This document shows positions 62,904-63,170 of a stretch of DNA of 64,000 nucleotides, in pieces. Where the stretch lies: the NCBI RefSeq assembly GCF_054482525.1, contig NZ_CM137006.1. One strand, 5' to 3'. Each line of letters opens with the position of its first letter. Positions within the stretch are counted from its first letter, which is position 1. The notes under the pieces were generated by a model that made no database searches, was not told the DNA's origin, and saw only the letters and a list, made by a program, of their open reading frames with translations. Both the position numbers and the translations under genes were made by a program.

Positions 62904-63170
62904 ATGGAATGGCTGGTCAAAAAATCGTGCTGCAATAAACAAGATAACAGACATGTACTTATGCTCTGCGATGCTGGTGGCACGATAAAAATGATCGCCG
63001 AAGTGAAGAGTGACTTCGCCGTGAAAGTGGGGGATTTACTCTCGCCTTTGCAGAATGCGCTTTATTGTATTAATCGTGAAAAGCTGCATACGGTGAAAGT
63101 CCTCTCGGCAAGCAGTTATAGCCCCGATGAGTGGGAACGGCAGTGTAAAGTGGCAGGGAAAACTCAGTAA
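62904..63170 (+). CDS. pmrD: Signal transduction connector protein PmrD
   Basis: 88 aa from ATG 62904 ([26 protein letters not shown]...; AGGA 7 nt upstream); track ORF extended to upstream GTG. Confidence 0.9.

Follow-up and report, generated by a model that had tools for sequence, protein, structure and literature searches.

The tail-to-tail arnF/pmrD overlap is probably an ordinary compact convergent junction ended by factor-dependent termination

Based on detailed inspection of the 7-bp overlap between pmrD and arnF, and on comparisons to related genomes combined with published transcript data, we propose that this is an ordinary compact convergent junction, ended by factor-dependent termination and carrying no dedicated regulatory device, a reading that we hold to be probable though well short of certain. 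The arn operon would end with zero spacer before whichever gene faces arn, and the stops of the weakly constrained PmrD and ArnF tails may have drifted a few bases past one another. Without a hairpin terminator, transcription of the pmrD strand would carry on antisense through arnF; ribosomes would be released at the pmrD stop, and Rho, according to published bicyclomycin data, then ends the RNA approximately 0.3-0.5 kb further on, behind a C-rich stretch antisense to arnE. Transcription of the arn operon is most likely Rho-ended too, inside the region antisense to pmrD or further. The mutually antisense 3' regions would thus be a by-product, and any effect on expression would probably be small, amounting to a mild negative feedback that arn transcription would exert on pmrD.

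The window, i.e. the whole stretch of 64,000 nucleotides that was analysed, contains the following features that bear on the junction.

62904-63170, plus strand: pmrD, encoding the 88-aa PhoP-activated connector that protects phospho-PmrA (ORF list, equivalog match, PGAP).
63164-63550, minus strand: arnF, encoding a 128-aa flippase subunit, the final gene of arnBCADTEF (ORF list, equivalog match, PGAP).
63164-63170: the tail-to-tail overlap of the two coding sequences, TCAGTAA, 7 bp (sequence, ORF list, PGAP).
63550-63885, minus strand: arnE, to which the pmrD-strand RNA is antisense where it terminates.
61439-62794, plus strand: menE, upstream of pmrD and on the same strand.
816-819: the convergent overlap TTAA of yfcJ (plus) and flk (minus), 4 bp, also listed as the excludon flk-yfcJ.

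The shared TCAGTAA consists of the arnF stop (plus-strand TCA, read as TGA on the minus strand, 63166-63164), a G, and the pmrD stop TAA (63168-63170). Both partners are genuine coding genes on opposite strands that share bases: PmrD matches the NCBIfam equivalog NF011994 over its full length (173.8 bits, cut-off 96), and ArnF does the same for NF002816 (139.6 bits, cut-off 99). The same 7-bp overlap is present in the PGAP annotation of SCU-102, of K-12 MG1655 (arnF 2372892-2373278, pmrD 2373272-2373538) and of two divergent E. coli strains. The window belongs to an E. coli chromosome; between 62700 and 64000 it matches SCU-102 at 100% identity, and nearly all of the 5,419 complete genomes that gave a match at 96-99%. 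Sequence, ORF list and RefSeq annotation hence confirm the 7-bp tail-to-tail overlap that the original prediction had described. Its parallel at yfcJ/flk is equally real, with a yfcJ stop TAA at 817-819 and a flk stop TAA at 818-816 on the minus strand, the pair being given as flk/yfcJ in RefSeq annotation. The predicted gene identities, the position of arnF as last gene of the arn operon, and the membership of both genes in one PhoP-PmrD-PmrA-arn circuit (PMC2565834) hold as well.

It could be argued that annotation alone creates the overlap, and that either pmrD or arnF really ends earlier than given, in line with the poor conservation of the PmrD and ArnF tails. We give this virtually no chance of being correct, and the sequence has already refuted it. 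Stop codons, unlike starts, are unambiguous, both ORFs are unbroken up to their stops, and both proteins yield full-length equivalog matches. Identical stops moreover recur across Escherichia, and the sole substitution seen there, TAA to TAG, leaves pmrD with a stop and is silent in arnF (CGT to CGC). On the minus strand, the arn genes also overlap among themselves: the arnE stop and the arnF start have 1 nt in common at 63550, and arnT and arnE share 4 nt (approximately 63882-63885), both representing the usual geometry of translational coupling.

Overlaps of this kind are well documented. A survey of E. coli found 58 convergent CDS overlaps, with a predicted rho-independent terminator in 23 of the 116 genes involved (20%) (Lillo & Krakauer 2007, PMC2174442), and in a second one, 75 of 4,131 adjacent pairs were convergent and overlapping (Huvet & Stumpf 2014, PMC4161906). 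The surveyed cases resemble arnF/pmrD in that a few bases including both stops are shared, and both surveys attribute such overlaps to movement of stop codons. Nothing essential differs; arnF/pmrD is special only in that both genes serve one resistance circuit. Within the window, two of the seven convergent junctions overlap, the remaining five being spaced by 32-70 bp, as follows (negative values denote overlap).

arnF/pmrD: -7 bp.
flk/yfcJ: -4 bp.
yfcC/yfcD: +32 bp.
yfcH/rpnB: +47 bp.
yfbR/yfbS: +58 bp.
yfbM/nuoN: +66 bp.
elaD/hypothetical: +70 bp.

The geometry of arnF/pmrD is ordinary, not unusual. Two further observations concern the spaced junctions. The convergent yfbM/nuoN spacer carries an insertion of approximately 701 bp (49816-50516), encoding an IS200-like Y1 transposase (PF01797, 130.7 bits) and occupying the expected place of a bidirectional terminator; otherwise the window equals SCU-102 (99.99%). 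In the SCU-102 background, elaD is by annotation a frameshifted pseudogene (L002 10272-11496, inside the span of the window).

The arrangement is already annotated, and it is already catalogued as an excludon. In the ExcludonFinder study (Sanmartin et al., NAR 2025, PMC12288877), arnF-pmrD and flk-yfcJ are among 165 convergent excludons of MG1655, a call that requires overlap of transcript coverage in at least 50% of 58 transcriptomes and that is near automatic where the coding sequences themselves overlap. The pair arnF-pmrD is named explicitly there as a same-pathway pair, and the authors state that p19 dsRNA data could not validate convergent excludons. Like other members of the class, arnF and pmrD are adjacent opposite-strand genes, and their transcripts are called in that catalogue as overlapping at the 3' ends. 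In contrast to the excludon concept, the logic PhoP → PmrD → PmrA-P → arn predicts co-induction of the two genes rather than exclusion. Another convergent pair of the PmrAB system, pmrR-basS (pmrB), is present in the same table, and represents a separate locus outside the window; in BL21, the region 3'-downstream of pmrB, where pmrR is located, alters the level of pmrB mRNA (PMC8004244).

How transcription ends at a junction lacking a spacer was addressed by scanning 1.7 kb around it. The pattern scan detected no intrinsic terminator past either stop; it returned five terminator-like sites against 2.0±1.4 expected, all of them within coding sequence. The RNA of the junction folds no more stably than shuffled sequences (z = 0.09 for the plus and 1.35 for the minus strand), and no Rfam element matched at or beyond the junction. 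The 109-bp menE-pmrD spacer is likewise free of terminator-like sites in the pattern scan. An intrinsic or bidirectional terminator at the junction was therefore rejected, as the matches are at chance level in coding sequences and there is no excess structure. Bidirectional intrinsic terminators possess a hairpin that both strands share, with A and U tracts on its flanks, in contrast to the arnF/pmrD junction; the 32-70-bp spacers of the five non-overlapping junctions in the window are of the kind that usually houses such elements. Two individual hairpins were also set aside. The first, internal to arnF (63271-63256), was considered as arn terminator; its stem is due to LPGWEG codons, and its T/U tract varies even within Escherichia, against a terminator role. 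The second is a weak minus-strand hairpin followed by a U run at approximately 63032-62995, antisense to pmrD, which was picked by eye from the fold input; here the U tract begins 6 nt beyond an imperfect stem, and the sequence mirrors conserved KMIAE codons. Termination assisted by head-on RNA polymerase collision (bioRxiv 10.1101/2022.10.23.513370) deals with the same problem of two converging units, and could contribute at arnF/pmrD.

For the pmrD strand, published data point to Rho. Among the Rho termination regions of Adams et al. 2021 (PMC7815308, supplementary file 2) is one at MG1655 2372815, minus strand, classified as antisense to arnE, with 163 reads upstream and 26 downstream without bicyclomycin, and 298 and 310, respectively, with the inhibitor (Rho score 6.5, p=2e-21). 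These values derive from DirectRNA-seq with and without bicyclomycin in LB only, evaluated in 800-nt windows, and the position is approximate. As K-12 and the window are collinear without indels here, the site corresponds to window position ~63627, i.e. 457 nt beyond the pmrD stop, and the pmrD-strand RNA must therefore be antisense across all of arnF. The upstream window of the Rho map also covers pmrD, such that either the pmrD or the men promoter could give rise to the RNA, and read-through from the men operon may contribute to the pmrD-strand RNA. Two stretches are pertinent.

63171-63627, plus strand: putative 3' extension of the pmrD-strand RNA, untranslated and lying antisense to the whole of arnF and to the last part of arnE.
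63511-63670, plus strand: C-rich, G-poor, rut-like stretch, assigned from composition, with the published Rho peak at ~63627.

The ORF list contains no plus-strand ORF of at least 40 aa between 63171 and 63691. The C/G ratio is 1.5-2.6 at +340 to +500, and peaks at 2.6 in 63531-63610, the most C-rich/G-poor plus-strand stretch of the region, located just upstream of ~63627. The RNA preceding the termination zone of the pmrD strand is hence both untranslated and C-rich/G-poor, and 63171-63627 offers the textbook conditions under which Rho loads onto an untranslated transcript. This matches Rho-dependent termination of untranslated and antisense RNA as reported (PMC7815308), being untranslated after the stop, C-rich/G-poor and bicyclomycin-sensitive. 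Compared to Rho-terminated intergenic 3' UTRs, the pmrD-strand site differs in lying 457 nt downstream and within a convergent operon, as located at 800-nt resolution. Curated Term-seq data are consistent with this picture: they contain no discrete 3' end across K-12 2372600-2373699, which fits diffuse Rho-dependent ends together with low expression. In denying a terminator any room, the original prediction was accurate insofar as intergenic space is missing, but the Rho-dependent terminator of the pmrD strand sits inside the neighbouring gene. The same map places a Rho region inside yfcJ (K-12 2440043, minus strand; 236/15 reads without and 266/98 with bicyclomycin, score 5.8), and much yfcJ transcription may accordingly stop short of the flk overlap.

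Alternatively, the long 3' extension of pmrD, which is antisense to both arnF and arnE, could itself act by modulating the flippase genes or by stabilizing the pmrD mRNA, with the native 3' region being needed for PmrD function. The Rho data obtained in LB are compatible with this, since pmrD-strand RNA covers all of antisense arnF, and so are cloning data: the pmrD ORF alone under PLtetO-1 conferred no colistin resistance and no rise in MIC, while inserts with native flanks raised the MIC, two resistant library inserts having in common pmrD with its promoter and ~285 bp from the 3' part of arnF (PMC8004244). The latter findings also count against regarding the antisense regions as a by-product. 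However, most of the library inserts are chimeric (PMC8004244), and promoter and copy-number context differ between the constructs, so that the comparison is confounded. Duplexes of arnF or arnE are not among the matches listed from the p19 data set (PMC7373196), and pmrD is kept in Citrobacter, where the genes are spaced by +3 or +9 bp, and in Intestinirhabdus alba without an arn operon at the site. We therefore regard an active role of the extension as improbable.

The arn strand can be followed less directly, through the features below.

62795-63163, minus strand: path of any read-through from the arn operon, antisense to pmrD and to the pmrD promoter spacer.
62693-62715 and 62770-62793, end of menE: two RNase III-type p19 duplexes (PMC7373196 Table S3).

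Along this path no intrinsic terminator was found on the minus strand by scan and fold. The part antisense to pmrD (62904-63163) contains more C than G, and the spacer beyond switches to more G than C; because of the C excess across antisense pmrD, Rho termination is the likeliest fate of the arn-strand RNA. The duplexes, perfectly paired over 21-22 bp, of RNase III type and annotated to menE in Table S3 of PMC7373196, were placed on the window by sequence matching and are located within the last ~100 nt of menE, including the menE stop codon. Consequently, arn-strand RNA exists at least 471 nt past the arnF stop, and this could be read-through from arn or the product of an internal antisense promoter. 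The sole promoter-like match of the pattern scan (62920-62893, minus strand) is at chance level. The duplexes at the menE end furthermore imply that RNA from the arn strand crosses the pmrD promoter region in antisense. No duplexes labelled pmrD, arnF or arnE are present among the matches listed (PMC7373196), an absence that is weakened by the poor capture of 3'-overlap dsRNA by p19. The original prediction had held that convergent read-through could generate mutually antisense 3' ends. For the pmrD strand this is borne out by the Rho region 457 nt past the stop, and in generic terms by the RNA-seq-based ExcludonFinder call; for the arn strand the p19 duplexes at the menE 3' end lend indirect support only. 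These data do not show both transcripts stopping well short of the overlap, the outcome that would have contradicted the original prediction. Coupling of the two genes' expression through the overlap, or RNase III cleavage at it, drew no support from the data.

A functional excludon represents the other alternative. Here, polymerases of the arn operon, induced by PmrA-P, would pass the arnF stop into pmrD and lower the output of PmrD through head-on collisions and/or antisense pairing followed by RNase III cleavage, thereby adding to, or in E. coli replacing, the repression that PmrA exerts on the pmrD promoter in Salmonella. In agreement with this, none of the taxa examined has a terminator at arnF/pmrD, the arn-strand RNA lacks structure beyond arnF, the RNase III-type duplexes at the menE 3' end indicate arn-strand RNA spanning the pmrD region, and the excludon call holds in half or more of 58 transcriptomes (PMC12288877). 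The direction is biologically sensible too, as PmrA-dependent repression of pmrD exists in Salmonella (PMC2565834). Nevertheless, that call is almost automatic given overlapping coding sequences, the labels pmrD, arnF and arnE are absent from the p19 matches listed (PMC7373196), and the C excess over G in antisense-pmrD RNA makes early termination by Rho likely. In Klebsiella pneumoniae, whose junction geometry is outside the comparison presented here, pmrD mRNA is independent of PmrA (PMC2565834). Our literature search on read-through or interference at pmrD returned nothing relevant, and found no experiment in which expression of either gene lowers that of the other. Taken together, we consider a functional excludon unlikely, though not negligibly so.

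A bolder version combines both alternatives. The missing terminator between arn and pmrD would then be a feedback arm, in which arn transcription antisense through pmrD and its promoter to the menE end damps PmrD and limits activation of PmrA, with the native 3' region antisense to arnF also mattering for the pmrD mRNA. We judge this to be rather unlikely. If true, it could explain why the pmrD ORF alone fails in colistin resistance as compared to native fragments; antisense feedback on PmrD would represent a brake at the level of transcription in a clinically relevant polymyxin/colistin resistance circuit, and would illustrate in detail a convergent excludon whose two genes are induced together instead of in opposition.

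Comparison across relatives is informative for the preferred reading, that of an ordinary compact junction. Spacing was measured by a codon walk from the pmrD stop to the arnF stop, with the following outcome.

E. coli, E. fergusonii, E. marmotae, E. albertii and two cryptic-clade genomes: -7 bp, TCAGTAA or TCAGTAG.
Salmonella enterica and S. enterica subsp. diarizonae: -6 bp, the palindrome TCATGA, with the stops back to back.
Citrobacter freundii and part of the C. amalonaticus group: +3 bp.
C. amalonaticus: +9 bp.

The TCAGTAG variant represents the A-to-G substitution discussed above, by which pmrD keeps a stop and arnF is changed silently. The tail of PmrD after W77 is hypervariable; no other part of the protein varies as much in length and in sequence. 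In Pseudescherichia (L025 1887-1895) pmrD is absent, and arnF (stop TAA at 1887) and menE (stop at 1895) meet tail-to-tail across a 7-bp spacer where no terminator-like site was found; this reflects either a clean loss of pmrD or the condition before the gene was acquired. In I. alba (L017 2001-3114) pmrD is retained, and the order is menE, pmrD, a 250-nt spacer and a pmrG/ais-like gene, the latter identified by its match to heptose(II)-phosphate phosphatase (NF011945, 309.8 bits). No arnF was detected 3' of pmrD at this site, and no hairpin terminator follows pmrD despite the 250 nt of free spacer. No terminator was found between arnF and pmrD in any taxon examined. As judged from these alignments, the conserved feature is the lack of spacer at the 3' end of arn, whereas the length of the overlap drifts, which fits the stop-codon movement invoked by the overlap surveys.

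Some considerations stand against regarding the antisense regions as a by-product. The abutment is conserved and both genes belong to one circuit, which is read in PMC12288877 as a hint of function, and as a class excludon pairs have more synteny than other adjacent pairs. Induction of PhoP and PmrA would moreover entail strong transcription of both genes, when collisions and dsRNA would matter most, whereas the Rho map was recorded in LB. As it stands, the present analysis does no more than describe anew a junction that is annotated and common in type; its transcript overlap has been catalogued, and the end of its pmrD-strand RNA is explained by Rho.

We note that an apparent overlap of 23 bp (-23) in E. 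coli SCPM-O-B-8794 (L010) was discarded from the comparison as a degenerate locus, since arnF aligns over its last 22 codons only; it is a frameshift in the pmrD tail that generates the 23-bp overlap. Damage to arnF is apparent elsewhere as well: a premature TAG leaves 87 aa in Escherichia sp. MOD1-EC7003 (L009), and in S. enterica subsp. arizonae (L016) the C-terminus is frameshifted or truncated, resulting in a protein of 114 aa.
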